Shown one piece after another: positions 5,100 to 34,870 of a DNA stretch of 40,397 bases. This DNA is from a virus (Duplodnaviria; Heunggongvirae; Uroviricota; Caudoviricetes). A program made the translations under genes and the position numbers. The number at the start of each line of letters is the position of its first letter. The first letter of the stretch is position 1. The stretch lies in IMG/VR virus record IMGVR_UViG_2663763428_000010. One strand, given 5' to 3'. Below the pieces are notes generated by a model, which saw nothing but the letters and a program-made list of their open reading frames with translations, made no database searches and was not told where the DNA came from.

Positions 5100-5684
5100 T
5101 TATTGTTTGTTTTTTTCGTTCTGGTTGATGACAAATTCAATGTAACTTTCGATCTTTGCTTTCTCGGTTTCGGGTAACAATGCGTAGCGCGAGCGATCAT
5201 AGTTGATGGTCGCAGGGTCGTGCGGGTGAATCAGTAATTCATAGCCGTGACGCCCGAATGCGGATGCAACATTCTCCAGGGTGGAAATGGAAACGCTGAC
5301 CTCATTGTTTAACAGGCGGCTGATTGTCACCTGGGCGACGCCGGATGCGCGGTGAAGTTTTCCCTGTGTTGAAAGGTCGCGGCTTTCGCTCATCCAGCGT
5401 TCCAGGTTGTGAGCCGCAAGCTGACCTATATCGCTCGGGCCGACAGGCTGAAAACCCTCCTGAGAAAGCGAACGATCAATATCAAGCCAGTTACGGGGTT
5501 TATTGGCGGCAGCTTCAATTTTTCGTGCAACCTGGTCGCCGATAACCTTCTTGCCAAGAGCCCAGCGGTTTACCAGATTTGCCTGAGTTCCAAGTTTTTC
5601 TGCCATCCGCGTCTGAACACCATTGAATTCACGGTCGATCAAGTCGTTGAGATTTTGCCTGCGGACGTCCTGGATACTTTTCAT
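5100..5684 (-). CDS. Prophage repressor, tandem HTH_XRE domains, no S24 peptidase domain
   Basis: 194 aa; two Cro/CI-type HTH-like segments; divergent from a Cro-like gene across an operator-rich intergenic region. Confidence 0.7.
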   Translation of the reverse strand: MKSIQDVRRQNLNDLIDREFNGVQTRMAEKLGTQANLVNRWALGKKVIGDQVARKIEAAANKPRNWLDIDRSLSQEGFQPVGPSDIGQLAAHNLERWMSESRDLSTQGKLHRASGVAQVTISRLLNNEVSVSISTLENVASAFGRHGYELLIHPHDPATINYDRSRYALLPETEKAKIESYIEFVINQNEKNKQ

Positions 5685-5739
5685 TTTCTGGAAAATCGCC
5701 TCATATATGAATCAGTAGATGATTCAATTTAAAGCAATA

Positions 5740-5802
5740 TTACCCAACAGGTAAATGCACCCCACAGGTAACTATCCTTGATTTTTGTTACCTTATGGGT
5801 GA
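5740..5802. promoter_or_regulatory. Immunity-region operator cluster with three sites (5740-5754 perfect; 5757-5771 degenerate left half; 5788-5802 near perfect) and divergent promoters
   Basis: TTACCCAACAGGTAA, GCACCCCACAGGTAA, TTACCTTATGGGTGA between divergent repressor and cro-like genes; TTGATT -35-like hexamer at 5778-5783. Confidence 0.65.
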
Positions 5803-5838
5803 ATATTTATTATCTGAAATAAATATCAGGCAATAGCT

Positions 5839-6069
5839 ATGAGCGATAACGGACATTTCGATTTCAAAAAGCACTGGCTTGCACTTACTCCGGATGAGCG
5901 TGAAGCCTTCGCACAGGAAGCCGGAACGACGAGTCACTATATCCAGACTCACTTAACAGGTAAGCGCAAAATGCCAGGTAAGGTATTGATGAATGGGCTT
6001 TTTAAAGCCTGTAAAACAAGACAATGGCTGCGCTCAAAAGCAGAACTGGCATACTTCTTCTACTCATGA
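5839..6069 (+). CDS. Cro-like small DNA-binding protein
   Basis: 76 aa ORF divergent from the repressor, immediately downstream of the operator cluster. Confidence 0.55.
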   Translation: MSDNGHFDFKKHWLALTPDEREAFAQEAGTTSHYIQTHLTGKRKMPGKVLMNGLFKACKTRQWLRSKAELAYFFYS

Positions 6070-6090
6070 TATCCAGCCACAACCCTCTGT

Positions 6091-6116
6091 AGACCGCCAT
6101 CCGGCGGTCTTTTCAT
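6091..6116 (+). terminator. Rho-independent terminator after cro-like gene
   Basis: AGACCGCC-ATCC-GGCGGTCT hairpin followed by TTTTC. Confidence 0.6.
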
Positions 6117-6124
6117 ATCTATTC

Positions 6125-6139
6125 GTACCTCAAAGGTAA
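6125..6139. promoter_or_regulatory. Operator palindrome (GTACCTCAAAGGTAA) upstream of the replication operon
   Basis: Family member of TTACC-N5-GGTAA with one mismatch, directly after the cro terminator. Confidence 0.5.
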
Positions 6140-6219
6140 TAAAAAACCAAATATGGTTGATCTTTTTTTTGTGTCAGCACAAAATAACCGTAATCCCAAT
6201 ACTAATAACAGGGCTTACC

Positions 6220-6420
6220 ATGGAAATCATTACACGTATTGATGCCGCAAAGCGCGGACTTAAACGCTACTACACCGGAAAACCATGTAAGCACGGACAT
6301 GACAGTGAACGCTGGGTTTACAACGGACACTGTGTTGAGTGCACCATGGAATCAAACCGTCGCATCAGGGCAGAGATTAAGCAGATCATGATTAATTCCT
6401 CCCCACAACACTCAAGCTGA
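6220..6420 (+). CDS. Small Cys/His-rich hypothetical protein at the cII-equivalent position
   Basis: 66 aa from ATG at 6220; track ORF begins upstream at a TTG, rejected; PCKHGH...GHCVEC motif. Confidence 0.45.
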   Translation: MEIITRIDAAKRGLKRYYTGKPCKHGHDSERWVYNGHCVECTMESNRRIRAEIKQIMINSSPQHSS

Positions 6421-6435
6421 TAGCGGAGATTAATC

Positions 6436-7251
6436 ATGAGCAGACATGCAACAGATTGGGCCTGGGAGACAGATCCAGGTAGCTCATCATTAAAGCTCAT
6501 ACTGCTCTCGATGGCTGACAGAGCCGATGAATATAACCTCTGCTACCCCAGCATAGAACGCCTCGTTAAAGACACTTGCCTGAATAAAAAAACCGTGCAG
6601 GCCGGGCTTATATCGCTCATGAAAATGGGGCTTATTTCAGATACCGGAGAGAGAAAGGGAGCGACAAAAAGAGTGCGGGTTTTCTCTCTTAATATAACCA
6701 AAAACGGGAACATTAAAGGCAACCGGGAGGGGGGCAATGAACCAGAAAACGGTAATGTTACCGAAAACGGGAATATACCCAAAAACGGGATGTTGAATGA
6801 TCCCAAAAACGGGATGTTGAATGATCCCAAAAACGGGATCCAGAACCAGTCATATAACCAGTCATTTAACCAAGAGAGGGAGAGCAGGACAAAAAACGGG
6901 GATTCTGTGCATCATGACCCCGGCGCAAACAACGCCGTGATGAATAACTTTGTTCCTCCTGGTGGGCCAGGGCAATTAGGCAAATTTGTCATGCATGAAC
7001 AATGGCAGCCATCAGATGACTTTCTTCGGAAAAGCTCATTGCAGGGGATCTACCTGGACAGTCTGCCAACGGCACAGGAACTTGCAGAGTTCAGAATTTA
7101 CTGGATGGCTGAGGGTAAGGCATACCATCAGGCACAGTGGGAGCAGAAGCTGGCAAGGCGGCTGCAGATTAGCAGACAGAAGCAATCAACATTATCTGAT
7201 AACAACGTTCCGCACTGGAACAGCCCTGAAGCATGGGAGGATTTCTTGTGA
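6436..7251 (+). CDS. Replication initiator, lambda O-like, N-terminal HTH
   Basis: 271 aa; N-terminal HTH-like domain; internal iteron-like DNA repeats; stop overlaps the P-like gene start. Confidence 0.7.
   Translation: MSRHATDWAWETDPGSSSLKLILLSMADRADEYNLCYPSIERLVKDTCLNKKTVQAGLISLMKMGLISDTGERKGATKRVRVFSLNITKNGNIKGNREGGNEPENGNVTENGNIPKNGMLNDPKNGMLNDPKNGIQNQSYNQSFNQERESRTKNGDSVHHDPGANNAVMNNFVPPGGPGQLGKFVMHEQWQPSDDFLRKSSLQGIYLDSLPTAQELAEFRIYWMAEGKAYHQAQWEQKLARRLQISRQKQSTLSDNNVPHWNSPEAWEDFL
6697..6841. repeat. Iteron-like direct repeats (core CCAAAAACGGGA) including an exact 24-bp tandem duplication at 6778-6825; candidate replication origin
   Basis: Repeated motif at 6697, 6741, 6759, 6778, 6802, 6826 and 6888; followed by AT-rich repeated CCAGTCAT(A/T)TAACCA. 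Confidence 0.55.
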
Positions 7252-8033
7252 ACAACGTTTTTACCGCGATACAAAACCGTGACGGAGAAGCCCTTTCTCG
7301 CATGTCAGGTTATGAGCATCAGTACGTCAACAATGACAATGTGGTTAACATGTCAGCAGAGAGGCTTGTTGATGCCCTTTTCAAACAGCTGAAACAACTG
7401 TTTCCGGCGGCAGTGGTAACCAACCTGAAGACGCCAGAGCAGGAAGTAGCTGCAAAACAGCAGTGGATTGCTGCGTTTGCCGAAGGGGGGATCCGAACCC
7501 GTGAACAGGTTTCTGCTGGTATGCGCCACGCCCGCGCCAGTGAATCTCCGTTCTGGCCGTCGCCTGGGCAATTCATCAAGTGGTGTAAAGACAGCAAGAT
7601 GGTTCTTGGCGTCACCATTGACGATGTGATGGCGGAGTTTCACCGGTACAGCAAGGAAAAAAGTTTATATCCTGGTGGTCCCGAAAGATTCCCGTGGCGA
7701 CATCCGGTTATGTACTGGGTCGTATGTGATACCCGCCGTGCAATGTATCAGCGCCAGCTTAGCGAGATTGAGGTTGAGAAACACGCGCGCAGGCTGCTCG
7801 ATGATTGGGCGAAAAAGGTGGCTTCCGGACAGCAGATACCCGATCCGGTGATCAGCATACAGGCAAAGCCAGAACCCATGAGTACACCTCCGGACACAGG
7901 GAGAGACGTTTACCATCCACCAGGGCGAAGTTTCGGGTGCATGCCTAACGCCGCCACCCTTGGTGGAATAACACCGGCGCAGTGGCTGATGGAGGAATAC
8001 AGGCGAGGAAAGGCGGCAGGATTTATCAAGTAA
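7248..8033 (+). CDS. Replication protein P-like (helicase loader)
   Basis: Central region RTREQVSAGMRHARA..PFWPSPGQFIKWC resembles lambda P as recalled; GTG at 7248 with GGAGG RBS overlapping O stop (GTGA). Confidence 0.75.
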   Translation: MNNVFTAIQNRDGEALSRMSGYEHQYVNNDNVVNMSAERLVDALFKQLKQLFPAAVVTNLKTPEQEVAAKQQWIAAFAEGGIRTREQVSAGMRHARASESPFWPSPGQFIKWCKDSKMVLGVTIDDVMAEFHRYSKEKSLYPGGPERFPWRHPVMYWVVCDTRRAMYQRQLSEIEVEKHARRLLDDWAKKVASGQQIPDPVISIQAKPEPMSTPPDTGRDVYHPPGRSFGCMPNAATLGGITPAQWLMEEYRRGKAAGFIK

Positions 8034-8038
8034 TACCA

Positions 8039-8058
8039 GCGCGATAGCGCATTTTTTT
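8039..8058 (+). terminator. Weak terminator-like hairpin after P-like gene
   Basis: GCGC-GATA-GCGC short stem followed by ATTTTTTT. Confidence 0.35.
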
Positions 8059-8070
8059 ACGCCTCAACAA

Positions 8071-8147
8071 TTACCTGTTAGGTAATAAAACATTCTAAAA
8101 TCTATTGATTTCGTGTCTTATGTGGTTTTTAATTACCTCAGAGGTAA
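8071..8147 (+). promoter_or_regulatory. Promoter flanked by two operator palindromes (8071-8085 TTACCTGTTAGGTAA; 8133-8147 TTACCTCAGAGGTAA)
   Basis: -35-like TTGATT 8105-8110, 17-bp spacer, -10-like TTTAAT 8128-8133 overlapping the second operator, whose right half also supplies the GAGG RBS for the ATG at 8151. Confidence 0.55.
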
Positions 8148-8150
8148 ATC

Positions 8151-8495
8151 ATGAGAAAACAGATACAGGCTCTTGGTCGACTCAAAACAGGTCAGATGAA
8201 CAAAACAGAATCTGCGTATTGCCAGCACCTTGAGCTGCGTAAACGTGCAGGAGAAATCGTCTGGTATCGATTTGAGGGTATCAAGCTGCGGTTAGCTGAC
8301 AACACGTTCTATACGCCCGATTTTGCTGTGATGCTCGCCACCGGCGAGATGGAACTGCACGAAGTGAAAGGTTTCTGGACCGACGACGCCAGGGTGAAAA
8401 CCAAAGTCGCCGCAGATCAGTATCCGTTCCGAATCATCGGGGTAACGGTTAAACCAAAGAAAGCAGGTGGTGGCTGGATCATCGAAGAGTTCTGA
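8151..8495 (+). CDS. DUF1064-like phage protein (possible PD-(D/E)xK/resolvase-like fold)
   Basis: 114 aa ORF with RBS; family assignment recalled from similar lambdoid prophage proteins, not verified. Confidence 0.5.
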   Translation: MRKQIQALGRLKTGQMNKTESAYCQHLELRKRAGEIVWYRFEGIKLRLADNTFYTPDFAVMLATGEMELHEVKGFWTDDARVKTKVAADQYPFRIIGVTVKPKKAGGGWIIEEF

Positions 8496-8556
8496 ATCGA
8501 CGATCTTTTTAGTTATCAATGTTATCAATAAGTTATGTGGATAAGCGAGGGTAAAT

Positions 8557-9069
8557 ATGGAAAGTAATATCAAAGGGTTAGTTTCTGCCGGGCATGAGAT
8601 GGCTTCGGAACTGAAAGCTGAATGTGGTGCCGTTGATATGCGCAGTGTGGCAAAGCTGCTCAGCGATTTGGCAACGCAACTGGAAGTGCAACTGGTGCGT
8701 GCTAATGCGCTGGCCGAAGACCACCAGAGCGCGATTGAGTCAATTAAGCAGGCTGATGCTGCTGTTAAGTTGGCACACGAGAAGTTTTCAGCGCTGGCAG
8801 CGGAGAATGCAAAGCTGAAGAAGTTCTGCAAAGACGCTGCATTCGATGCCGATTACGAAGCAGAGCTAGGTATGGAGAGAGGTGGCTTCAGTGATGCACT
8901 TAACGAAATCAAAACCCCGGCCACCGACGCATTCCTTGCTGAAGTCCGGGCGCAGGGCGTGGAGATGGCTATGGAGCATATGCAGTCGAGCGGTTCGTTA
9001 ACATTTGGAGATTGCTACATATCACTTAACGAGTTCGCCGCAGAGCTTCGCAAAGGAGGCAACCAGTGA
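8557..9069 (+). CDS. Hypothetical protein, coiled-coil rich
   Basis: 170 aa ORF with GAGGGTAAAT RBS. Confidence 0.55.
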   Translation: MESNIKGLVSAGHEMASELKAECGAVDMRSVAKLLSDLATQLEVQLVRANALAEDHQSAIESIKQADAAVKLAHEKFSALAAENAKLKKFCKDAAFDADYEAELGMERGGFSDALNEIKTPATDAFLAEVRAQGVEMAMEHMQSSGSLTFGDCYISLNEFAAELRKGGNQ

Positions 9070-9824
9070 GCAAGATTGACTATCAGGCACTGCGTGAGTT
9101 AGCAAAACAGGCAACACAGGGCGAATGGGTCGCATTTATTTCGCCGGGTACTGGTACGTATGCGGTGCATACGCCAGGTGATAAACGATGCGAAGATGTT
9201 ATCAAATGGCCTGGGTTTGATGGACAGAAAAAAGCTGCTGCTAATGCTCGTTATATCGCAGCTTTCAACCCTGAAGTAGTGCAGGCACTGCTGGATGAAC
9301 GGGAAAGAAACCAGCAATACATCAAACGCCGCGACCAGGAGAACGAGGATATTGCGCTAACGGTAGGGAAGCTGTTAATCGAAAACGGTCAGCTTGTTGC
9401 CGATACGCTACGCCACTTAGCTGATAACGAAATCGACTCTGATTATTTTGCTATCACCTCAACTAATGAGAACGGTACTGAAATTGATCATGAGATGTCT
9501 ATTACCGATTACGCACTGCAAGCTGCCGGAACTGTAGACGAATTGGTTGCGGCGCTGGAAGCCGCAAAATCAAAACTCAACGAGCAGCGTGAATATTACG
9601 AGGGAGTAATCGCGGATGGAAGTAAGCGCATAGCAGAGTTAGAAAGTGGTTCTCAGGCACAAAAGTTAGTTGAAGCAATCATTGTTGCGATAGAAAACGA
9701 ACAGGAACGTCTTTTTGATGAAGATTACCTAATGGATTCGAAAGAATGCATTGACGTAATTCGTGAAGAAGTAAAGCGATGGAATGATTCCCGCGCCGCT
9801 GGCATTCGCATCAAAGGAGAGTGA
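9066..9824 (+). CDS. Ead/Ea22-like protein
   Basis: 252 aa; N-terminus MSKIDYQALRELAKQATQGEW characteristic of Ea22-like proteins; GTG start overlapping previous stop. Confidence 0.6.
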   Translation: MSKIDYQALRELAKQATQGEWVAFISPGTGTYAVHTPGDKRCEDVIKWPGFDGQKKAAANARYIAAFNPEVVQALLDERERNQQYIKRRDQENEDIALTVGKLLIENGQLVADTLRHLADNEIDSDYFAITSTNENGTEIDHEMSITDYALQAAGTVDELVAALEAAKSKLNEQREYYEGVIADGSKRIAELESGSQAQKLVEAIIVAIENEQERLFDEDYLMDSKECIDVIREEVKRWNDSRAAGIRIKGE

Positions 9825-9825
9825 T

Positions 9826-10062
9826 ATGGCAACTTTGAAAAAAGAAGATCGTTTTACCAAAAAACAAATCGCCGAGGCAAAAATCCTCGATAACAACGGA
9901 ACCTACTTCATCAACGGTTCCATTCTTCCAGTTTATATCAATGAGGATGGAGACACTTACCTTATTGAAGAGTACGAAAAAGGCGAGCCGAGCGAACACC
10001 TCATTAAAGATTTGTTCGCGGATGGCGTTATTGTTGCGGTTAATCCAATCGGATACAACTGA
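9826..10062 (+). CDS. Hypothetical protein (78 aa)
   Basis: ATG at 9826 preceded by AAAGGAGAG RBS; track ORF start further upstream rejected. Confidence 0.5.
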   Translation: MATLKKEDRFTKKQIAEAKILDNNGTYFINGSILPVYINEDGDTYLIEEYEKGEPSEHLIKDLFADGVIVAVNPIGYN

Positions 10063-10072
10063 GGCATAATTT

Positions 10073-10243
10073 ATGACCACTTTAACCGACAAAGAACTGA
10101 TTAAAGAAATCAAAGAGCGTATCAGCAGCCTGGACGTTCGAGACAATATTGAACGCCGGGCTTATGAAATTGCACTGGCATCGCTGGAAGCAGACCCGGT
10201 TGTGTTCTGGTTTGAAAAATATCAAGAAGGGGCTACGGCATGA
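10073..10243 (+). CDS. Small hypothetical protein (56 aa)
   Basis: ATG with GAGG RBS; stop overlaps next start (ATGA); N-terminus MTTLTDKEL resembles next gene N-terminus MTTFTNSKL. Confidence 0.4.
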   Translation: MTTLTDKELIKEIKERISSLDVRDNIERRAYEIALASLEADPVVFWFEKYQEGATA

Positions 10244-11022
10244 CCACTTTTACCAATAGCAAACTAACAGACGAATACGTTTCAAATGCAACGTTGATTC
10301 GGCTCATTCTGTGGGCTGACCAGCACAATAGCCATTATGTTGTAGCGGCTCTGCGCGAGCTACAGGAGCGCCGCAAGGCTGATAGTGCCGAACCTGCAAG
10401 TAATCATGAAGAGTTGCCACTTGATTATCTCCAAGGTCAAAAAGATGGTCTTGAATGGGCTGCGCAGCTTGCAGAAGCAAATCACCCACAAACTGGCGAC
10501 TGGCTTTACGATGACCCGCTGGAGCTGGCTAAAGCTATCAGAAAAGGTCCTGACATGCCCGAATTCGATGGACCAACTCCGGTAACTCCGGCTCTTCTGC
10601 CTGGTGGTTTCACCATTGAGGAGGCGAAGGAATTACATGAAAACCTGGTACGCAGCCACATAAGCAAGGCCTTAAGTGGCGAAAAGATGAAAAAGAAAGA
10701 TCGCGATGCTGATTTGCGCTGGATTCATGGCGTAATAGTTCAGGCCGCGTGGTTTATAAAAGCATCACTGGAGCAGACCGCGCTATCGGGCACTCCTCCG
10801 GTAATTCCAGATGGTTGGATAAGCTGTAGTGAGCGAATGCCGGAAGACAACAAAATGTTACTGGCATTTAGTCAAGGTCAAATAGTGGCAGCATATTGGA
10901 ACTGGGTAATGAGTCCAATTGATTACAAAAAATATAGAGCTTTCACATATTTATCAGGAAATATCTTGGATGACGTAACCCACTGGATGCCGCTACCAGA
11001 ACCGCCGCAGGAGGTTAAGTGA
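10240..11022 (+). CDS. DUF551-domain protein
   Basis: 260 aa; C-terminal THWMPLPEPP segment typical of DUF551 as recalled. Confidence 0.55.
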   Translation: MTTFTNSKLTDEYVSNATLIRLILWADQHNSHYVVAALRELQERRKADSAEPASNHEELPLDYLQGQKDGLEWAAQLAEANHPQTGDWLYDDPLELAKAIRKGPDMPEFDGPTPVTPALLPGGFTIEEAKELHENLVRSHISKALSGEKMKKKDRDADLRWIHGVIVQAAWFIKASLEQTALSGTPPVIPDGWISCSERMPEDNKMLLAFSQGQIVAAYWNWVMSPIDYKKYRAFTYLSGNILDDVTHWMPLPEPPQEVK

Positions 11023-11372
11023 TGGACTATTCACAGTTAAGTGATTTTGAAATTAACAGAATGGTAGGAGACATAATTTTTAAAGGCCTTTGGGCGTGTA
11101 AACCGGAAACATCAGGGAATAACACCAACAAATGGTATTACGGAAATACTGATACAACTTTTGAGCCATTAAACCCTTTACCTGACTACTGCAATAATCC
11201 ATCGGATGCATGGCCTATTATTGTTGATAATAAAATCAGTCTAACCTGCCACCACTCTCGCGGTGAGTGGTCAGCTGTTTTTAATGCCGAGAACATTTGC
11301 TTTCATGCGAATAATCCACTCCGAGCCGCCATGATTGTATTTCTCATGATGCAGGAAAATCAGAATGGCTAA
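11019..11372 (+). CDS. Hypothetical phage protein (possibly DUF2591-like)
   Basis: 117 aa ORF overlapping neighbours; family guess unverified. Confidence 0.5.
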   Translation: MMDYSQLSDFEINRMVGDIIFKGLWACKPETSGNNTNKWYYGNTDTTFEPLNPLPDYCNNPSDAWPIIVDNKISLTCHHSRGEWSAVFNAENICFHANNPLRAAMIVFLMMQENQNG

Positions 11373-11703
11373 ATCAGCAGCAGAGCGCAAAGCCGCTCAG
11401 AGAGCCAGACAAGCTGAATCCGGTGTGCGTAAGCTGGAAATTATGCTTGATGCTCAGGAAATTGAAATGCTGGAGCGTAACTGTGCCACGCGTCGCCCCG
11501 GGCGTGCGCCTTACGAATTTGGTGAGTATATAGCGTTACTGATCCGCCAGGATGATGCACGCGTGCGTGGGCGTATGAAATCGATCAGCAGAAAACGTTG
11601 CGGTAAGTGCGGAGAGAGAGTTCCTGTGAATTCATGCCCGTGTAATGGTGACTCGCAATGCTGGGTGACTAAAGGCTGGCATGAAACGAAATTAATAGTG
11701 TGA
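11365..11703 (+). CDS. Hypothetical protein with C-terminal Cys cluster
   Basis: 112 aa; CGKCG...CPC motif; TGA stop lies inside the GTGACATGTCAC palindrome. Confidence 0.5.
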   Translation: MAKSAAERKAAQRARQAESGVRKLEIMLDAQEIEMLERNCATRRPGRAPYEFGEYIALLIRQDDARVRGRMKSISRKRCGKCGERVPVNSCPCNGDSQCWVTKGWHETKLIV

Positions 11704-11711
11704 CATGTCAC
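11700..11711. repeat. Exact 12-bp palindrome GTGACATGTCAC, copy 1 of 3
   Basis: Direct read; overlaps stop codon of the preceding gene. Confidence 0.9.
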
Positions 11712-11752
11712 GAGTAGATTATACATGATGAATTTGATGGGTTTTGAATACT

Positions 11753-11778
11753 GCCGCCAACTATGGCGGCTTTATTTT
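11753..11778 (+). terminator. Rho-independent terminator at end of early-right region
   Basis: GCCGCC-AACTAT-GGCGGC hairpin followed by TTTATTTT. Confidence 0.65.
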
Positions 11779-11789
11779 GCATGGTACTA

Positions 11790-11822
11790 TTACCACAACG
11801 GTAACTATTACCACGGTGGTTA
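11790..11822 (+). promoter_or_regulatory. Two operator palindromes immediately upstream of terminase small subunit (11790-11804 TTACCACAACGGTAA; 11808-11822 TTACCACGGTGGTTA)
   Basis: Tandem ACTATTACCAC direct repeats forming two TTACC-N5-GGTAA-type sites; second site abuts the terS start codon. Confidence 0.55.
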
Positions 11823-12418
11823 TGATGTCTGCTGAACCTAAAACCTATAAACGCAAATCAACGCAATTTAAGCCACTAACAGCAATGCAGGAGGCTTATT
11901 GCCAGTCATACATCAAAACGCCTGAAAACCAGACTCAGGCAGCGATTAACGCAGGATTCTCCCCAAATACAGCGGCAGTTAAAGCCAGTGTCATGATGCG
12001 CGATGAACGCATTCAAAAACGGATTGCCGAGTTGATGGAGGAGCGCAACAAACGAATGCGCGTCAGTGCTGATTACGTTCTCATGCGCCTGGTGGAGATC
12101 GACCAGATGGACGTGATCGACATCCTCAACGACGATGGGAGCCTTAAGCCAATCCGCGAGTGGCCGAAAATCTGGCGCACTACGCTTAGCGGCTTTGATC
12201 TGTCATCGACCATCATGAACATGAACGAGGATTCGATAGAGACAATCCTCAAAAAAATTAAATGGCCTGACAAGGTGAAGAACCTCGAACTGATTGGTAA
12301 GCACGTCGACGTCAACGCATTCAAAGAACGCCTGGATGTTAATGTGAATGTGACAATTGCTGATCGCATAGCAGCAGCCAGGAAGCGACTCAAAGAACGT
12401 CAGGATTGTAATCAGTGA
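11822..12418 (+). CDS. Terminase small subunit
   Basis: About 198 aa from ATG at 11822; position immediately upstream of large terminase; track ORF N-terminal extension crosses terminator and operators and is rejected. Confidence 0.65.
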   Translation: MMSAEPKTYKRKSTQFKPLTAMQEAYCQSYIKTPENQTQAAINAGFSPNTAAVKASVMMRDERIQKRIAELMEERNKRMRVSADYVLMRLVEIDQMDVIDILNDDGSLKPIREWPKIWRTTLSGFDLSSTIMNMNEDSIETILKKIKWPDKVKNLELIGKHVDVNAFKERLDVNVNVTIADRIAAARKRLKERQDCNQ

Positions 12419-13890: not shown

Positions 13891-13932
13891 TCCGTTAGCG
13901 GGGATAATGACGGAGATATCCTCTGGTGAGGA

Positions 13933-13960
13933 TAAAACAAAGCCAGCTCATCGGCTGGCT
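13933..13960. terminator. Bidirectional rho-independent terminator between terminase and Gp49-like gene
   Basis: AGCCAGC-TCATCG-GCTGGCT hairpin flanked by A-tract upstream and GTTTGT downstream. Confidence 0.6.
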
Positions 13961-14540: not shown

Positions 14541-14617
14541 TGGCGTGGCATGCAGGATTCGAACCTGCGACCAACCGCTTAGAAGGCGGTTGCTCTGTCC
14601 AACTGAGCTAATGCCAC
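14541..14617 (-). tRNA. tRNA-Arg, anticodon UCU (reads AGA)
   Basis: Reverse complement folds as full cloverleaf: acceptor GTGGCAT/ATGCCAC, D-arm GCTC...GAGC, anticodon stem ACCGC/GCGGT with loop CTTCTAA, T-arm GCAGG-TTCGAAT-CCTGC, discriminator G and encoded CCA. Confidence 0.85.
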
Positions 14618-19426: not shown

Positions 19427-19427
19427 G

Positions 19428-28550: not shown

Positions 28551-28555
28551 ATTAA

Positions 28556-31030
28556 ATGAGACAGGAATGTATACAAGCGGTCCAGCAGGCGGCGCAGCGC
28601 ACGTTAACGGCGCGAGAAATACAGAACATTGAAGACCGCATTTATCGAAATATGCGCTCCATTGCTCGTGATGACCCGATGTCGTGGCGACAACTTTCCG
28701 AATCAGAACGGTTGTATCGTGCAGCACAATTGGCATCTGAAGAATTACAGCGAGAAGCGGCATTAAAGAAACGTCGTGTGGCTCTCACTATAGCCGCACG
28801 TCAGAGATTGGATAAATTTATCAATAGCTATCAAGGGGCTGATGGGAAACTTGGCGCTCTTAACCGTACTATTGCTTTTAATGCAGACGGTAAATCGAAT
28901 TTCCTCTCTGTTGAATCCAGAACAAAAGCCACTCGTGATTATGCATTGAGTCAATTGCAGGAGGCATTTGAAGCAGTTGATCCTCGCTTTTTTGGTCTGT
29001 TTGAAGATGAAGCGGGCGTACGTGACCTGGTATATGAAATGCGGGGGCAAAATACTGGCAATGCTAAAGCAAGAAAAGGTGCTAAGGCGTGGAGAGAAGT
29101 TACAGAGCTGCTGCGCCGCCGGTTTAATGATGCTGGTGGGGACATTGGCTATCTCGAAAACTGGGGGATCCCTCAACATCATTCTATGGAAAAGGTTGGG
29201 GCGGTATCAAAGGATAAGTGGGTTAGCGATGTTATAGGTAAGCTGGATCGCAAATATTATACCCGAGCCGATGGACAACTGATGAACGATGCCGAGTTGT
29301 CTGCATTTCTTGGAGAGGCTTATAACACGATCGCTACTGGTGGGCTGAATAAGCTTACTGATACCGGAATGCGAATTTCCGGCGCACGTGCTAACCGTGG
29401 TAATGCATCACGACAGATACATTTCAAAGATGCAGATTCCTATCTCCAATATCAACAACTTTATGGCGATCGCTCTCTATGGGAAATCATGGTCGGTCAC
29501 CTGGAAGGTATCAGTAAAGATATTTCTCTGGTGGAAACATATGGTCCAAACCCCGATCATGTTTTCCGCTCACTTCTTGATCAGGTTAAGGCAGAAACGG
29601 CAACAGCTAACCCGAGTAAAACCGGTAAAGTCGAGCGGCTGGCGAACAACACAGAGAATCTGTACAACTTTATTTCCGGAAAGACACAGCCTGTAGCGAA
29701 TCCGCACATCGCGCAATGGTCTGACAATATCCGCAACTGGCTGGTTGCCAGCAGACTCGGATCCGCGTTGCTGTCATCGTTCTCTGATCTTGGAACCATG
29801 TATCTGTCTGCGAAGGTGACCAACCTTCCAATGAACCAGTTATTCCGCAACCAGCTTGAAGCTATGGACCCAACGAACCGTACTGAGCTTGCGCGGGCGC
29901 GACGCGCTGGTCTGGCGATGGAATCTCTACTTGGCAGCGTTAACCGCTGGGCGATGGATAATATGGGGCCGTCTGTGTCTCGTTGGGCTGCAACGGCGGT
30001 AATGCGTGCTAGTGGGCTTACAGCATGGTCAGATGCGCACAAGCGCGCCTATGGCGTAACCATGATGGGAAGCCTGGGAGAAGTAGTGTCACGGACACCA
30101 GACCTTCATAGCCTCGATGATTCTGATTTTCGTATCCTGAAAAGCAAAGGGATTACTGACACAGACTGGAGCGTATGGAGGCTGGCGCAACAGGAGGACT
30201 GGGGGAACGGCAATAATACGATGTTGACACCGGAAAGCATTATGCGTATCCCTGATTCAGCAGTTAAACATCTTGGTGAGCCTGAACGCGTGAAATTTGA
30301 GGCAATGCGTAAATTGCTCGGTGCCGTAACTGAAGAAGTTGATATGGCTGTTATTACACCGGGAGCACGTGAGCAACTGATAACTGGTTCTGGTATTCAG
30401 CGTGGAACATGGAAAGGTGAATTAACGAGAAGTGTTTTCCTGTTTAAATCGTTCCCTATCTCGGTGGTTATGCGTCACTGGTCACGCGCTATGGGTATGC
30501 CGTCTGCTGGTGGGCGTGCGGCATATATTGCGACGTTTATTGCCAGTACGACCATTCTTGGCGCTTTGTCGCAGCAACTTAACGACCTTGCGTCTGGTCG
30601 TAATCCTCGAGAGATGACAGGAGAAGATGCCGCAAAATTCTGGCTTGGTGCTCTACTGAAAGGTGGTGGTCTTGGCCTTTACGGTGACTTTTTATTGTCA
30701 GATCACACTAGGTACGGAAGCGGCGCGCTGGCGTCGATGCTTGGCCCGGTAGCTGGTCTGGTTGATGACGTAGTGAAGATTGCTCAGGGCATACCGTTAA
30801 ATGCTGTGGAAGGGAAGAATGAGCAGACTGGTGGTGATCTGGTTAAGCTGGGGAAAGGTTTGATGCCTGGTGCGAATCTCTGGTACTTGAAGGCGGCTCT
30901 CGATCACATGATCTTTAACCAGATGCAGGAGTATTTTTCACCAGGCTATTTGCGTAAAATGGAGCAACGTTCGAAGAAAGAGTTTAACCAGACATACTGG
31001 TGGAGACCTCAGGATGTCACTCCGCAATAA
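28556..31030 (+). CDS. Internal virion / ejection protein (large)
   Basis: 824 aa ORF completing the ejection-protein block. Confidence 0.55.
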   Translation: MRQECIQAVQQAAQRTLTAREIQNIEDRIYRNMRSIARDDPMSWRQLSESERLYRAAQLASEELQREAALKKRRVALTIAARQRLDKFINSYQGADGKLGALNRTIAFNADGKSNFLSVESRTKATRDYALSQLQEAFEAVDPRFFGLFEDEAGVRDLVYEMRGQNTGNAKARKGAKAWREVTELLRRRFNDAGGDIGYLENWGIPQHHSMEKVGAVSKDKWVSDVIGKLDRKYYTRADGQLMNDAELSAFLGEAYNTIATGGLNKLTDTGMRISGARANRGNASRQIHFKDADSYLQYQQLYGDRSLWEIMVGHLEGISKDISLVETYGPNPDHVFRSLLDQVKAETATANPSKTGKVERLANNTENLYNFISGKTQPVANPHIAQWSDNIRNWLVASRLGSALLSSFSDLGTMYLSAKVTNLPMNQLFRNQLEAMDPTNRTELARARRAGLAMESLLGSVNRWAMDNMGPSVSRWAATAVMRASGLTAWSDAHKRAYGVTMMGSLGEVVSRTPDLHSLDDSDFRILKSKGITDTDWSVWRLAQQEDWGNGNNTMLTPESIMRIPDSAVKHLGEPERVKFEAMRKLLGAVTEEVDMAVITPGAREQLITGSGIQRGTWKGELTRSVFLFKSFPISVVMRHWSRAMGMPSAGGRAAYIATFIASTTILGALSQQLNDLASGRNPREMTGEDAAKFWLGALLKGGGLGLYGDFLLSDHTRYGSGALASMLGPVAGLVDDVVKIAQGIPLNAVEGKNEQTGGDLVKLGKGLMPGANLWYLKAALDHMIFNQMQEYFSPGYLRKMEQRSKKEFNQTYWWRPQDVTPQ

Positions 31031-31039
31031 GGAAGTGTT

Positions 31040-31213
31040 GTGTTTTTAATTATTTTGAGTGTGATAATTTCTGGTGGATTGTTATTTATTGACCGCTACA
31101 AATATTTTCTTAACCCTCAGACTCAAGCTATTTGCTGGTTCATCTTTGCTGTGCAGGGAGTAGTTCTTGTTGCAAGCCTTATTGAGGGGAGGCCTCTTAT
31201 TTTTATTGGGTAA
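31040..31213 (+). CDS. Small hydrophobic protein candidate (57 aa, two predicted TM helices)
   Basis: GTG start with GGAAG RBS; below the 60 aa track threshold, read directly from sequence. Confidence 0.3.
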   Translation: MFLIILSVIISGGLLFIDRYKYFLNPQTQAICWFIFAVQGVVLVASLIEGRPLIFIG

Positions 31214-31225
31214 ATAGGTGACTAC

Positions 31226-31522
31226 ATGCAAGCTATAGGATTCATTGTTTATATCGTCGTTGGTCTTTTTCAGTTGGCAGCAATTATGGCTGGGCTTGAA
31301 TCATGGTGGGGATTGCACTGGATAATTGCAGCCCCCATTGCTTTCATCGTGAGCTATATTCCATTTGTTGGAGCGATTGTTGGTATGGTTGGCGCTGTGG
31401 ATGTATGGCGGTGGGAGTGGTGGCAGGCTGGCCTTCTATTCTTTGGTGGGATAATCTTTGCTATTGTCTGCGGTGGAATGTCATCATTTTTCGAATGGCT
31501 ATCATTCAGAAAAGGGACGTGA
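31226..31522 (+). CDS. Integral membrane protein (moron; possible superinfection exclusion)
   Basis: 98 aa, three to four hydrophobic helices, Trp-rich; AGGTGA RBS; stop inside GTGACATGTCAC palindrome. Confidence 0.55.
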   Translation: MQAIGFIVYIVVGLFQLAAIMAGLESWWGLHWIIAAPIAFIVSYIPFVGAIVGMVGAVDVWRWEWWQAGLLFFGGIIFAIVCGGMSSFFEWLSFRKGT

Positions 31523-31530
31523 CATGTCAC
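31519..31530. repeat. Exact 12-bp palindrome GTGACATGTCAC, copy 3 of 3
   Basis: Direct read; overlaps stop codon and abuts the terminator. Confidence 0.9.
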
Positions 31531-31556
31531 AGGCCGCTTTCGCGGCCTTGTTTTTA
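31531..31556 (+). terminator. Rho-independent terminator
   Basis: AGGCCGC-TTTC-GCGGCCT hairpin followed by TGTTTTTA. Confidence 0.7.
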
Positions 31557-31715
31557 ACGAATGCCACCGCCGCCCGGGCGGGAATCCGCAGAACGCCCAC
31601 CGCAGCGGGAGCCGTCAGCGGCAGTATCGCTGTCGTGCTGACAACGGCCGGCAAAGGCCTGAGTTGAAGCTACCAGAGACAACAAAACGAACAGTGCAGC
31701 AAATGCTTTTTTCAT
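31554..31715 (-). CDS. Small signal-peptide protein candidate
   Basis: MKKAFAALFVLLSLVASTQAFA signal-like N-terminus followed by a short GC-rich Cys-containing tail; weak RBS. Confidence 0.25.
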   Translation of the reverse strand: MKKAFAALFVLLSLVASTQAFAGRCQHDSDTAADGSRCGGRSADSRPGGGGIR

Positions 31716-31798
31716 TGTGAAAAATTTCCATCTATAAGCCACCTCAATGTGGCGTCAATGAGTGTAGCACTGACTTTTGTTTCGTCCATAAAAAACTA

Positions 31799-32311
31799 CT
31801 ATGCAGGCTTTTTGGATTTGTACGAATAATCCCACGGATAAACATTTCTACTAAGTGGAGCTGTATTCGTTCGTTCATGAAATAATTTTGTGAAATTCAA
31901 TACGGAATCCATCCAAACTTTTGCGTTAGCTTTGGTGTGTGCGGGCGGGTCCCAATAAGCTAGTAAGGCTGCATCTCTTATTTCATTGACTGCATATATG
32001 AGATATGCGTTACTGGTTGGTTTTGGCCTGTAATTTCCTTGTTCATCAATCAATCCATATGACCACTCATCCCAACACTGTTCAGTACATGAGTATGAAT
32101 ATGATGCATATTCACCAATATTGACATGAACCTTTCTGAGATGGAAGCCTAATACTTCCTCTGGTCTTTCAAAAAGAGTATCTTTTCCCAGATCAGGATG
32201 ATGACCATGACGCCAGTGTTGTTTAAAAGCATCTTTTAGCGAAATCAGAAAGTCATCAGTTTTAAACTCACCAGTAGGTATAACCTTCCCGCTATACTCA
32301 CTCAAAAACAT
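31799..32311 (-). CDS. Toxin-like protein, tentatively YafO-family
   Basis: 170 aa; segments HGHHPDLGKDTLF, LRKVHVNI and TSNAYLIY...LLAYWDPPAH resemble E. coli YafO as recalled from memory; ATG embedded in the end of the upstream gene with GGAAGAGGAA RBS. Confidence 0.45.
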   Translation of the reverse strand: MFLSEYSGKVIPTGEFKTDDFLISLKDAFKQHWRHGHHPDLGKDTLFERPEEVLGFHLRKVHVNIGEYASYSYSCTEQCWDEWSYGLIDEQGNYRPKPTSNAYLIYAVNEIRDAALLAYWDPPAHTKANAKVWMDSVLNFTKLFHERTNTAPLSRNVYPWDYSYKSKKPA

Positions 32312-32624
32312 CGAATTCCTCTTCCTTCATATGCGTTTCTAATGAGTTAAGCTGGCGGAAAGATATCTCTTTTGATTCTGCAGATGAGAGTTTTTTTATC
32401 CGCTTTATATTCTTTGTGATAGGAATAGACATTGTATGCACATCAGCGGATGCTCTTGGCTTTGTGCTGATAAAAATATGGCGCAATGCCGCATTTTCAC
32501 TATTGAACGAGCCAATAGCTGATTTACGTGCTACAACCTTACCAGTAAAAATACGACTCTTGCTACGCTTTGCATGAGTTCCGCTTCTTACCGGACCTCT
32601 CATCACGAATCCAAGTTTTGTCAT
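32298..32624 (-). CDS. Basic small protein, candidate partner/antitoxin of the downstream toxin-like gene
   Basis: 108 aa; GGAG RBS; overlaps the downstream gene by 14 nt; acidic C-terminus EEEFDVFE. Confidence 0.45.
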   Translation of the reverse strand: MTKLGFVMRGPVRSGTHAKRSKSRIFTGKVVARKSAIGSFNSENAALRHIFISTKPRASADVHTMSIPITKNIKRIKKLSSAESKEISFRQLNSLETHMKEEEFDVFE

Positions 32625-32666
32625 CTTTAATCTCCGGTAAGTTACAGGTATAAAATAAAAACAGGT

Positions 32667-32681
32667 TTACCTTTAAGGTAA
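32667..32681 (-). promoter_or_regulatory. Operator palindrome (TTACCTTTAAGGTAA) upstream of the two-gene toxin-like operon
   Basis: Perfect TTACC-N5-GGTAA about 45 bp upstream of the start at 32624, in an AT-rich promoter-like region. Confidence 0.5.
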
Positions 32682-32753
32682 TAGTACGCTATTCACCCCC
32701 GGTCTGCAATCTGTACAGAATTATTTAAAGGCACATCCCTGTGCCGCCGCCCG

Positions 32754-33464
32754 TCAGAAGAACCCTGCCTTGTCGTTGATGTACTCCGCGTGCGTCTGGA
32801 TATCACGCAGGCATTTACTCACACCGACGATGTAGCAGAACATGGTGGTCAGCTCCGCCGCCGCGCCCGATACGTCGTGCCCGTCGTCCTGCAACTGATT
32901 CAGCAGATTCATCAGCAATGAGTTCTCCGTCAGGCCGAGAACACCAGACGGCGAATGAATCAGACTGCGGTAGCCGGGCTTCAGTGGGGCACTGTAGGTT
33001 TTGTTCTCTATCTTCATTGCCTGCATCACTGCTGACGCCGTGGCGTTGGCTACCTGGTCGGCAACCATCTTTATGCGTTCTTCCTGCGGGAACGAGTTTT
33101 TAATGTAGCTTCCTGTTCGACGGATCTGAGGAAGTACCTCACCTGTAACCCATTTACGAAAGCGGTAGGGGATAGTGCCTAGTGTCACTGCGTCGCGGCA
33201 GCGGAGGATCAGTGTGTAGAGGCCTGACTCGGAGATGATGTTGATCTCTTTTACTCGGCTGTCAAAAATTGCACGATGTTCATGCCCTATGTTGAACATA
33301 GACCTTTCATCATCATCCAGTTTTTCAAGTGCTTGGGTGACGTTTTGGATACGCAGCGCACTACAAACGTCTTGGGCTACAAACCATGGTTGGCCATCGA
33401 TAATGATGGAACGGATAGGGTTAACAGATTCAAATTTGAAGATGGCAGTTTGAGCATTAGCCAT
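32754..33464 (-). CDS. Bro-N domain antirepressor-like protein
   Basis: N-terminal Bro-N-like segment; ATG at 33464 with GGAG RBS; C-terminal domain homologous to the small protein at 34613-34870. Confidence 0.65.
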   Translation of the reverse strand: MANAQTAIFKFESVNPIRSIIIDGQPWFVAQDVCSALRIQNVTQALEKLDDDERSMFNIGHEHRAIFDSRVKEINIISESGLYTLILRCRDAVTLGTIPYRFRKWVTGEVLPQIRRTGSYIKNSFPQEERIKMVADQVANATASAVMQAMKIENKTYSAPLKPGYRSLIHSPSGVLGLTENSLLMNLLNQLQDDGHDVSGAAAELTTMFCYIVGVSKCLRDIQTHAEYINDKAGFF

Positions 33465-33733
33465 GGTGGTTATCTCCACTTAGTGATTTTAATCACCACC
33501 GCAACGCCAATTACTGGTGGTGAACTGGACAAGGTTGGCGTACCGGCCTAAGTGGTACCGGTGTCCTTTCGGACCCCTGCCCAGCCCACCATAATTCGGA
33601 TATAGCTGTGCTTAACGCATAAAAAAACCACGTCTGGCGTGGTATGCGCCACTTAGTAACCCGGGACGCCAATCCCGGCACTGGATTTTGCCAGTGCCCG
33701 ATTACTATGGCACAAGAGGAGTGCGATGTAAAT

Positions 33734-33748
33734 TTACCGCAAAGGTAA
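33734..33748 (-). promoter_or_regulatory. Operator palindrome (TTACCGCAAAGGTAA) upstream of antirepressor gene
   Basis: Perfect TTACC-N5-GGTAA in the long leader upstream of the Bro-N gene. Confidence 0.5.
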
Positions 33749-33826
33749 TGATAAGCGCGGATAAATATTAAAATCAACCGTATTTGGTTGATTACGTTTA
33801 ACGCTTGATCACCTGAAAGCAAGATA

Positions 33827-33841
33827 TTACCTTTAAGGTAA
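33827..33841 (+). promoter_or_regulatory. Operator palindrome (TTACCTTTAAGGTAA) upstream of membrane zinc-ribbon gene
   Basis: Perfect palindrome 20 bp upstream of ATG 33862; TTGATC -35-like hexamer at 33804-33809. Confidence 0.5.
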
Positions 33842-33861
33842 TGTTATTGTGAGGAAAAGCA

Positions 33862-34590
33862 ATGGAAGTTTTCTGGATAGTTGTTGGTGTGGTTGCGGTG
33901 ATTATTTACGTTATCAACCAGAACAAGACTAAGATCTCTGATCGTACGGTCGTTAATCATAACAAAACGATAAAGACCGAAGATGGGGAGATAACGATTA
34001 ATCGTACACAGGTGATAGAACACACCTCTACTCAGTTTCAAAAAACTGGAGGTAATGCGCCTGATATTTCCGCACCTCCTGCTTATGATAGTGCGGTAAT
34101 CCAGACATATTATAAACAGCAGGAGTTAGCAAAAGAGAGGCAACTGATTCAGCCAAAGCCGTTTACAGCTGAGCTTCCACCTGGAGTGTCAACGCGTCCG
34201 GCATATCATGGAAGATTCCCTGGTGATGACATATCGTCTCAGTCATCTAAAAAAGCACCTCAGGCAGTATCAGAGCCAGCAAGAATAACTTCTGTATCGC
34301 CGCCAAAAGAAGAATCAGCTAACAGAGTTTCAAGTGGTAGCAAGCAGTGCTTGCGATGCAGAATAAACCTTCCATATGAAAAATTCAGGAAATCGTCAAA
34401 AAATCCAGATGGATTGACTAAGTGGTGTGCAAGGTGTCTCGATGGCCCAAAGAATACACGCCATATGAAGTGGTGCCCAATTTGTAATGTCCGCAGAAAA
34501 CGAACCAGCTTTTACCCTAATAATCAAAATGCGGACGGCTTAATGGCATGGTGCAAAACGTGCTGGGATGAGCACAAAGCGAAACGATAG
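33862..34590 (+). CDS. Membrane-anchored protein with two tandem C4 zinc-ribbon repeats
   Basis: 242 aa; N-terminal TM helix; two repeats of CxxC-x21/22-CxxC sharing DGL...WC...C. Confidence 0.6.
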   Translation: MEVFWIVVGVVAVIIYVINQNKTKISDRTVVNHNKTIKTEDGEITINRTQVIEHTSTQFQKTGGNAPDISAPPAYDSAVIQTYYKQQELAKERQLIQPKPFTAELPPGVSTRPAYHGRFPGDDISSQSSKKAPQAVSEPARITSVSPPKEESANRVSSGSKQCLRCRINLPYEKFRKSSKNPDGLTKWCARCLDGPKNTRHMKWCPICNVRRKRTSFYPNNQNADGLMAWCKTCWDEHKAKR

Positions 34591-34614
34591 GCCGCTCTTG
34601 CGGCCTTTAAATTT
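34589..34614. terminator. Hairpin terminator between convergent genes
   Basis: AGGCCGC-TCTT-GCGGCCT followed by TTAAATTT. Confidence 0.45.
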
Positions 34615-34870
34615 ACCGGGTTTGTTTTCGTAATTGTTCGGCACAATAGTCGAGATGTGTTTGCAGATCCCGCATAGACATCTGTGAGCTGGTGACGTAG
34701 TTAATCAGTGCAGTCAGTTCGGCAAGTGGGCCATCGACATTAAATCCATCCTTATCGAGATCCCGGAGTAATTTCATCAAGTGCGATCCCTCCACCAGTG
34801 ACCTGACGCCTCCCGGCGTGTGAATCCTTTCGGTAAATCCGTCTTCCAGTGGATAGTGATACTGCTGCAT
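34613..34870 (-). CDS. Small protein paralogous to the C-terminal domain of the Bro-N antirepressor
   Basis: 85 aa from ATG at 34870 with GGAGAAG RBS; alignable by eye to Bro-N protein residues about 150-235 (shared LRDIQTH / MRDLQTH block). Confidence 0.55.
   Translation of the reverse strand: MQQYHYPLEDGFTERIHTPGGVRSLVEGSHLMKLLRDLDKDGFNVDGPLAELTALINYVTSSQMSMRDLQTHLDYCAEQLRKQTR

Follow-up and report, generated by a model that had tools for sequence, protein, structure and literature searches.

The 40,397-nucleotide stretch of viral DNA analysed here (IMG/VR record IMGVR_UViG_2663763428_000010; hereafter the window) is that of a temperate podovirus of the genus Uetakevirus, the epsilon15/phiV10-like group, and occurs as a prophage in E. 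coli. It carries a lysis–lysogeny switch which, with a probability that we put at roughly 0.8, follows the Rep/Ant type of SPC32H, with a second antirepressor cassette added to it. The core of the switch is formed by a non-cleavable repressor, Rep (rep, 5100..5684, minus strand), and a small antirepressor of 85 amino acids, Ant (ant, 34613..34870, minus strand), which has a LexA box upstream. The second cassette encodes Bro-N::Ant, a fusion protein of 236 amino acids (32754..33464, minus strand) with a Bro-N head and an Ant-like tail, behind a leader that contains C4 and isrK-like RNA elements. As far as sequence can tell, the core switch is already known: all of the defining features of the SPC32H type that are open to a sequence test are present. 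That system was reportedly described by Kim & Ryu (2013, J Virol 87:11775) and Kim et al. (2016, PNAS 113:E2480), with PDB entries 5D4Z and 5D50.

The repressor Rep and its operators

Rep is a protein of 194 amino acids of the SPC32H Rep family, with an N-terminal helix-turn-helix (HTH) DNA-binding domain and a C-terminal domain of HTH fold. In Pfam, HTH_3 is matched at residues 106–147 and a weaker HTH-like match covers residues 21–61; the same scan of Rep returned HTH families only, with no Peptidase_S24 match at E ≤ 0.01. PDB chain 5D50_A ('Repressor') is matched across residues 1–190 (E = 4e-42), and the C-terminal half aligns to 5D4Z, the structure of the Rep C-terminal domain. Chains A and E of 5D50 are the Rep/Ant pair of the Salmonella phage SPC32H. 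Rep is 42% identical to SPC32H Rep, and it is 100% identical in the window, phiV10, ZX5 and PAS61. It does not fall into the autocleavable class of LexA and lambda CI, as it is without the S24 domain and its C-terminal half fits 5D4Z instead.

The original prediction, made from the letters of the window, had seen no S24 or LexA-like cleavage region in this repressor and had concluded that induction is likely to proceed via an antirepressor and not by RecA-mediated cleavage. The Pfam result and the full-length homology to 5D50_A bear out the first point, and we judge the second to be right. Autocleavage of Rep at a cryptic site, stimulated by RecA and making the antirepressors dispensable, draws nothing from the sequence and has in its favour the general precedent of lambda and P22 alone, whereas Rep has full-length homology to a protein that was solved as an Ant-bound complex, besides lacking S24, and the literature groups this family with antirepressor-induced phages (PMC7380047). 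We consider autocleavage scarcely credible.

The palindrome TTACC-N5-GGTAA, at up to one mismatch, has 15 matches in the window against 0.57 expected. Operators of this type start at positions 4966, 5028, 5740, 5757, 5788, 6125, 8071, 8133, 11790, 11808, 14940, 32667, 33734, 33827 and 34947. These operators stand 5' of nearly every transcription unit, including the replication, packaging/structural and accessory operons. Rep thus distributed looks like a genome-wide repressor, not confined to one immunity region.

An OR-like cluster occupies the intergenic region between rep and a cro-like gene (5740..5802), with TTACCCAACAGGTAA at 5740–5754, GCACCCCACAGGTAA at 5757–5771 (two mismatches, counted by eye) and TTACCTTATGGGTGA at 5788–5802. 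The cro-like gene (5839..6069, plus strand; 76 amino acids) is divergent from rep and matches phrog_35, a transcriptional repressor, at E = 6e-13. Two OL-like operators, at 4966–4980 and 5028–5042, lie 3' of the rep terminator and 5' of the leftward early operon. The motif scan also places an operator, TCACCTGAAAGGTAA (34947..34961), in the intergenic region between ant and the tailspike gene; the epsilon15 GenBank record marks the homolog of this site as a protein_bind feature, 'repressor'. A further operator, TTACCTTTAAGGTAA (33827..33841), lies 21 nucleotides (nt) 5' of a plus-strand open reading frame (ORF) at 33862, and an identical site is found at 32667–32681. Operator palindromes had been predicted 5' of both antirepressor genes, and they are there: at 33734–33748 and 33827–33841 for the Bro-N gene, and at 34947–34961 for the small gene.

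The small antirepressor and its LexA box

Ant matches PDB chain 5D50_E ('Anti-repressor protein') at E = 1.4e-46 and is 87% identical to the product of SPC32H ant, of which it is the ortholog. The gene is syntenic with SPC32H ant and with epsilon15 gp19, adjoining the tailspike gene, and the GenBank record of SPC32H annotates 'ant' and 'rep' at the syntenic positions. About 20 nt 5' of the ant ATG lies a LexA (SOS) box, AACTGTATATTTATACAGTA (34890..34909), an exact CTGT-N8-ACAG which agrees with the 20-mer consensus at 18 of 20 positions. It is the sole match in the 40-kb window at up to three mismatches, and no match arose in 100 shuffles. An alignment of ant promoters shows the box to be kept in SPC32H, epsilon15, phiV10 and TL-2011b.

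The absence of a LexA box upstream of the antirepressor had formed part of the original prediction, which had also named a proper motif scan as a check. That scan, run against the 20-mer consensus, gave the one unique match just described, 5' of ant. For the Bro-N gene the absence holds, since no CTGT-N8-ACAG at up to one mismatch occurs 5' of it in 33465–33860; for the small gene it does not, the box at 34890–34909 having been overlooked.

SPC32N and SPC32H differ, in the promoter alignment, by a single C>A change within the ACAG half-site of the LexA box. This agrees with what is said of SPC32N, namely that its constitutive induction results from a single base change in that box. SPC32H Rep, for its part, is reportedly not cleaved on SOS induction. 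In the published account of this family, self-cleavage of LexA lets the antirepressor be made, and the repressor is inactivated by protein–protein contact (PMC7380047, citing Kim and Ryu 2013). On DNA, Rep is tetrameric; Ant, itself a tetramer, breaks this assembly by binding two Rep dimers (PMC9638917).

Because it encodes the ortholog of SPC32H Ant and has a near-consensus LexA box directly upstream, the small ORF at 34613–34870 can be identified as the primary SOS-controlled antirepressor gene, and not as an accessory to the Bro-N protein. Within the phage collection a Rep homolog occurs in 36 records and an Ant homolog in 35, with nearly identical host breakdowns; Ant is the universal partner of Rep. 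It is also the sole copy of its domain in SPC32H, epsilon15 and PAS61, none of which has a Bro-N::Ant cassette. Correct wiring of the two genes matters for predicting which prophages are SOS-inducible.

Existing annotation gives little hint of this role. In the RefSeq record NZ_CP028578.2 (locus L011) ant is a 'hypothetical protein', and the isrK and C4 RNAs are not among the features returned for the region; PHROGs labels the Ant family, phrog_450, as of 'unknown function', though the structure of Ant has been solved. Ant and Rep are unequally conserved: in the Klebsiella relatives, Rep has 45% and Ant 60–64% identity. This asymmetry could mean that Ant contacts a conserved surface of Rep, which would permit cross-induction, or that the need to form its own tetramer keeps Ant from diverging.

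The Bro-N::Ant protein

Bro-N::Ant consists of a Bro-N head at residues 17–112, a linker and an Ant-like C-terminal domain at about residues 155–231. The head matches Bro-N (PF02498) in Pfam with 71.3 bits against a cut-off of 25.6 (E = 1e-19). The tail, at residues 155–228, is 43% identical to Ant without a gap (BLASTP E = 4e-20). When the whole protein is searched against PDB, 5D50_E is the sole match (E = 2e-13), residues 155–231 aligning to Ant 3–79, and the protein also matches phrog_450, the Ant family, at E = 6e-36. Fourteen residues are invariant across both paralog classes (Ant numbering: Y4, H17, G21, L25, S29, M32, L35, D41, G42, V45, A50, E51, Y58 and H72). A tblastn search of each copy against the whole window found just these two, and no third Ant-like copy. 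Both the Bro-N gene at 32754–33464 and its stand-alone C-terminal paralog of 85 amino acids are therefore as they had first been described from the letters of the window.

The nearest experimental evidence comes from phage vB_EcoP_ZX5, whose repressor (ORF21) is 100% identical to Rep and whose 'anti-repressor' (ORF4) is 80% identical to Bro-N::Ant. Overexpression of ORF4 lowered the prophage titre from 1e9 to 1e6, about 1000-fold, and reduced rep mRNA by 75% (PMC9782041). The paper contains no occurrence of 'LexA', 'SPC32H' or 'Bro-N', and a term search of it found no small ant gene, no Ant-like tail and no C4 or isrK RNAs; the sole experimental study of a near-identical phage thus overlooked the LexA-controlled ant gene and the C4 RNA. 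In phiV10 (L002, 3060–3739) the Bro-N gene is annotated as a 194-amino-acid 'anti-immunity protein' followed by an ORF of 29 amino acids, and ant is intact. Since tblastn covers the Ant-like tail of the phiV10 gene in two pieces, the tail is probably frameshifted.

It had been proposed that the Bro-N protein is the principal antirepressor and that the free-standing copy modulates it, as an anti-antirepressor or decoy. The two proteins do have a domain in common, mixed oligomers are conceivable since SPC32H Ant is reported to be tetrameric (PMC9638917), and the ZX5 Bro-N homolog shows antirepressor-like effects. Against this, the 85-amino-acid protein is orthologous to a characterised antirepressor and has its own SOS box; it is the only copy in SPC32H, epsilon15 and PAS61, the last of which has a Rep 100% identical to that of the window; and in phiV10 it is the Ant-like part of the Bro-N gene that is split over two annotated ORFs. 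We hold the proposal to be very improbable. The parts of the circuit had been placed correctly, but their roles were reversed and the C4 antisense RNA cassette was overlooked: the small protein acts with its own SOS box, and the Bro-N protein is an accessory copy of the antirepressor domain.

Bro-N::Ant co-occurs with three types of Rep, of 100%, 78% and 45% identity. The reading in which it is the proper partner of the Rep of E. coli type, and Ant merely a relic, was rejected on the strength of this co-occurrence and of PAS61, which combines an identical Rep with the small Ant alone.

The C4/isrK leader of the Bro-N::Ant gene

The 400-nt leader of the Bro-N::Ant gene (minus strand, 33860 to 33465) is a cassette of the P1 immI / N15 immA type, in which three elements are found with Rfam. 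All of its features lie on the minus strand. A promoter-like site, TTGATT-18-TATCAT (33777–33748), has a −10 that abuts or overlaps the Rep operator TTACCGCAAAGGTAA at 33734–33748. This operator lies upstream of isrK, at 37 nt from its 5' end in six Uetakevirus loci (the window among them) and at 34 nt in phiV10; its N5 spacer is variable. N15 has no TTACC-N5-GGTAA operator at the corresponding cassette, despite the same RNAs; its repressor differs.

Downstream of the operator comes an isrK-like short RNA (33621..33697; RF01394, 67.7 bits, gathering score 50), for which a terminator scan finds an intrinsic terminator at 33643–33627 with a T run. Within the isrK element lie the upstream C4 targets a1/b1, TTGGCGT at 33672–33666 and CTAAGTGG at 33656–33649, and the c4-a1b1 motif itself (RF03163, 33710–33658) is matched with 44.1 bits, just below its gathering score of 46.7. 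The C4 antisense RNA follows (33513..33596; RF01695, 63.6 bits, gathering score 45). Its antisense segments, the hairpin loop CCACUUAG and the junction ACGCCAA, are unpaired in both the Rfam consensus and the minimum free energy fold, with two perfectly complementary sites for each elsewhere in the transcript, one set in isrK and one 3' of C4. The latter set constitutes the a2/b2-like downstream targets (33476..33510), TTGGCGT at 33510–33504 and CTAAGTGG at 33483–33476, of which the second overlaps GGAG, the Shine-Dalgarno sequence that serves the Bro-N ATG at 33464. The gap of 48 nt between C4 and this ATG holds no icd-like ORF; by eye, the leader has one ORF only, of 14 codons and inside C4.

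The same cassette is carried by six other Uetakeviruses with a Bro-N gene. Across the seven phages, the window included, four specificity types of C4 loop and target covary perfectly. Beside the type of the window these are, as loop and junction, CCUUUUAG / ACGCCAA, CCUUUGUAG / AGACCAA and CCUUUGUAG / GUCUCAA. Wherever a target set was detected, the targets are changed to match the C4 loops; for Tyrion and EC.W1-9, an exact-match search did not find the upstream copy of the loop target. Such covariation is the comparative signature expected of functional antisense pairing. Phages of the phiV10, TL-2011b and ZX5 types share the Rep of the window and have the C4 loop CCUUUUAG, so that the window and phiV10, with identical Rep, differ in their loops (CCACUUAG vs CCUUUUAG).

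A third conserved complementarity is seen at 33493–33500, where GGTGGTGA, 3' of C4, pairs with the 3' strand of the C4 closing stem (nt 74–81). It recurs at homologous positions in the loci of TL-2011b (L001) and phiV10 (L002) and in L006–L009, and may represent an alternative structure or a processing signal.

The Ant domain behind different heads

A profile of the Ant domain, searched against 1.84 billion representatives, defines a small family of 65 clusters, whose members are either stand-alone proteins (80–95 amino acids) or longer ones that end in the domain. A word-indexed search with Ant returned close stand-alone homologs only, and the fusions surfaced with a C-terminal query and the exhaustive profile search. 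Five N-terminal heads were found on the domain: Bro-N, AntA, pRha, ORF6N and P22_AR_N. The AntA/AntB (PF08346), Phage_pRha (PF09669) and ORF6N (PF10543) heads are represented by proteins P0269, P0278, P0313, P0316 and P0147. Protein P0139, of 84 amino acids, is a natural chimera which joins the N-terminal half of Ant to a C-terminal half of Bro-N type.

The most elaborate arrangement is that of TL-2011b (L001 1780–2964 and 1951–2018), in which a P22-type immI cassette adjoins the Bro-N cassette and comprises an Arc-like gene, a sar RNA (44.8 bits) and a P22_AR_N-headed protein of 314 amino acids. Residues 235–306 of this protein are an Ant-like domain, nearly identical to the Bro-N version. 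The domain thus occurs three times in TL-2011b, once each under the control of LexA, C4 and Arc/sar.

From these arrangements, the Ant domain appears to be a swappable Rep-targeting module placed behind different regulatory inputs, a modest new variant on known switches. One small Rep-binding domain (Rep binding being predicted for the fusions) behind a LexA box, a C4 RNA and Arc/sar would be a clear natural example of the modular rewiring of prophage induction. A broader proposal can be offered only tentatively, and we think it possible but doubtful: that immunity in Uetakeviruses has a second specificity, encoded in RNA as the C4 loop type, over a shared repressor, as in P1 vs P7, and that the domain of about 80 residues is a portable Rep-targeting module acquired by each imported cassette, with one repressor wired to several triggers (SOS, heterotypic superinfection and possibly others). 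If so, the cassettes served would be the P1/N15-type C4, the P22-type Arc/sar and the AntA-, Rha- and ORF6N-headed ones. The paralogs might in addition form mixed tetramers, in which the inputs would be integrated, given the tetramer reported for SPC32H Ant.

A model for the switch

In the lysogen, uncleavable Rep would occupy TTACC-N5-GGTAA at rep/cro, at the leftward promoters and at most other units, including the promoter of the second cassette, while LexA would sit on the SOS box at the ant promoter. DNA damage would lead to autocleavage of LexA and production of the 85-amino-acid Ant, which would bind Rep (a step known only from the SPC32H pair, seen in crystal structure 5D50) and free the operators, turning the lytic genes on. 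The second cassette (minus strand, about 33777 to 32754) would supply the same effector domain independently of SOS. Its C4 RNA would pair, through the unpaired segments, across the Shine-Dalgarno region of Bro-N::Ant and block translation. Synthesis of Bro-N::Ant would accordingly require that Rep be missing or displaced, and that C4 be missing, titrated by the short RNA with its a1/b1 sites, or of a type that does not match. The protein would then inactivate the same Rep through the common domain, without SOS. The activation of anrP translation by IsrK in Gifsy-1 and the heteroimmunity of P1 and P7 are precedents for such control. Two occasions can be envisaged. The first is anti-immunity, when a relative with the same Rep and a different C4 type superinfects a lysogen (as P1 vs P7), the window and phiV10 being such a pair; the second is feed-forward reinforcement after Rep has left the cassette promoter. 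Testable predictions follow on heteroimmunity and cross-induction among Uetakeviruses with a common repressor.

The model draws on the homologies, the LexA box, the operators and the RNA elements with their covariation described above, and on work by others on close relatives, in which Ant is LexA-controlled and binds Rep, and overexpression of a Bro-N homolog lowers lysogeny. We infer that Bro-N::Ant binds Rep via its C-terminal domain and that C4 represses, and likewise on what occasion the second cassette fires.

A number of observations weigh against this model. Ant is 87% identical to its SPC32H counterpart but Rep only 42%, so that cognate binding in the immunity type of the window is deduced from co-occurrence. 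Rep may close both of the cassette's promoter-like sites, and a lysogen would then have no evident source of C4. The isrK element of Gifsy-1 activates translation via an upstream ORF that is missing here. In the duplex energies of C4 with its targets, a fraction of 0.006 to 0.12 of mononucleotide-shuffled targets equals or exceeds the stability of the real ones; we take the covariation as the stronger evidence for C4 pairing. The remaining points concern the tail of the Bro-N protein. The overexpression data for ZX5 ORF4 are indirect, and the Ant-like domain is only about 40% identical to Ant. The AlphaFold2 model of Bro-N::Ant, built on a 29-sequence alignment, is poor, with a mean predicted local distance difference test (pLDDT) score of 58 and values of about 40–65 in the C-terminal half; the domain assignment depends on the matches to 5D50_E, the model being too poor for a fold search. 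Ant is moreover a tetramer, and the common domain could be kept for oligomerisation and not for Rep binding.

The low identity and the low-confidence model leave room for a Bro-N protein that is not aimed at Rep at all: its shared tail would be a mere oligomerisation module, and it would act via its DNA-binding Bro-N head as a regulator or host-takeover factor, the head being found on many proteins that differ in function (1161 phage records). We think this unlikely. The domain is found behind five unrelated heads and always at the C-terminus; the controls of the cassettes examined, C4, Arc/sar (TL-2011b) and, for the stand-alone Ant, LexA, are all classic antirepressor types; and the fusions in the phage records examined reside in genomes that also encode a Rep homolog. 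The P0139 chimera, which joins halves of the two versions, and the lowering of both lysogeny and rep mRNA by ZX5 ORF4 point the same way, as does N15 gp30, which has the same head and a different C-terminus, in keeping with its different repressor. An accessory Bro-N antirepressor aimed at Rep fits these observations better.

Comparison with known systems

The switch of the window is like that of SPC32H in the full-length homology of Rep without S24, in the 87% identity of Ant, in the position of ant divergent from the tailspike gene and in the conserved LexA box and upstream Rep operator. It is unlike SPC32H in that Rep is 42% identical, which makes it a different immunity type, and in that SPC32H has no Bro-N::Ant gene, isrK or C4, its ant directly following a small membrane-protein gene.

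Two routes to one repressor are already known from N15, whose systems are said to have been described originally by Mardanov & Ravin (2007) and Ravin et al. (1999). A LexA-controlled antC and an anti-immunity operon, immA, under a small processed RNA there oppose one non-cleavable repressor (PMC4488713). N15 resembles the window in having these two antirepressor routes, LexA and a C4-type RNA, with isrK and C4 matches 5' of its operon, and the Bro-N head of gp30 is 43% identical to residues 7–121 of the window protein. In contrast, the C-terminal domain of gp30 is unrelated to Ant, and N15 has the extra genes 32 and 31 between C4 and gene 30. Paralogous effector domains delivered by both routes are the feature of the window.

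The immI operon of P1 and P7 (c4 antisense RNA, icd, ant) underlies the heteroimmunity of these two phages. Shared with the window are a C4 in the leader of an antirepressor operon, a target set in two copies, one upstream (a1/b1) and one at the ribosome-binding site (a2/b2), a promoter with an operator for the primary repressor, and loop/target types that differ between phages with a common repressor. Unlike P1 and P7, the window lacks an icd-like ORF, the target overlaps the antirepressor gene's own Shine-Dalgarno sequence, and the antirepressor is a Bro-N head with an Ant-like tail and not P1 Ant1/2. Judged by its RNA elements, the second cassette appears to belong to the P1/N15 C4 family, minus the icd-like ORF.

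With isrK-orf45-anrP of Gifsy-1 the cassette has in common an isrK RNA that has a terminator of its own and is partly read through into the antirepressor gene, and translational control of this gene by an RNA leader; orf45, however, is absent from the window. IsrK is described there as a trans-activator of anrP translation, and the C4 model is not invoked (PMC4825925, Hershko-Shalev et al. 2016). P22 immI (mnt-arc-ant-sar) is alike in the siting of the antirepressor locus between ejection/tail genes and the tailspike gene, and unlike in that the window has no arc, mnt or sar (no sar match was obtained), whereas its relative TL-2011b has the Arc-like gene, sar RNA and P22_AR_N protein. The P22-type protein of TL-2011b ends in the Ant-like domain, not in the P22 C-terminal domain.

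Each module of the switch thus has a characterised precedent, and no new class of mechanism is opened. What was not found described elsewhere is the convergence of the routes on paralogous copies of one small domain, and the grafting of this domain onto at least five antirepressor heads.

Distribution and neighbouring genes

The DNA of the repressor region is 96–98% identical to that of phiV10, TL-2011b, PAS61 and ZX5. Prophages with a copy of the region from 32.6 to 35.1 kb at 100% identity occur on three complete E. coli chromosomes; of 5,426 complete E. coli genomes, 100 contain 80% or more of this region and about 535 contain part of the locus. As in SPC32H, ant is divergent from the tailspike gene and lies 3' of genes for large internal/tail proteins, with about 3.6 kb of additional genes separating the gene of an 824-amino-acid protein from ant in the window.

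A transfer RNA gene, tRNA-Arg (anticodon TCT), is located at 14541–14617 on the minus strand, opposite to its neighbouring genes and just 5' of the packaging/structural operon. Between the two antirepressor genes is situated a plus-strand ORF of 242 amino acids (33862–34590), whose product is hydrophobic over an N-terminal segment and repeats a CxxC motif of zinc-ribbon-like appearance; it belongs to phrog_6762 and has weak matches to the endonuclease VII, Lar-like and Stc1 families. Its counterpart in phiV10 is a mere remnant, annotated 'similar to SF0880'. On the other side of the Bro-N gene, at 31799–32624 on the minus strand, a YafO-toxin-like gene of 170 amino acids overlaps an upstream gene of 108 amino acids, and the pair has its own Rep operator at 32667–32681. 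The Pfam match to YafO (E = 7e-4) is below the cut-off, and the RefSeq name is YafO family toxin. The pair may be a toxin–antitoxin or defence module that is silent in the lysogen.

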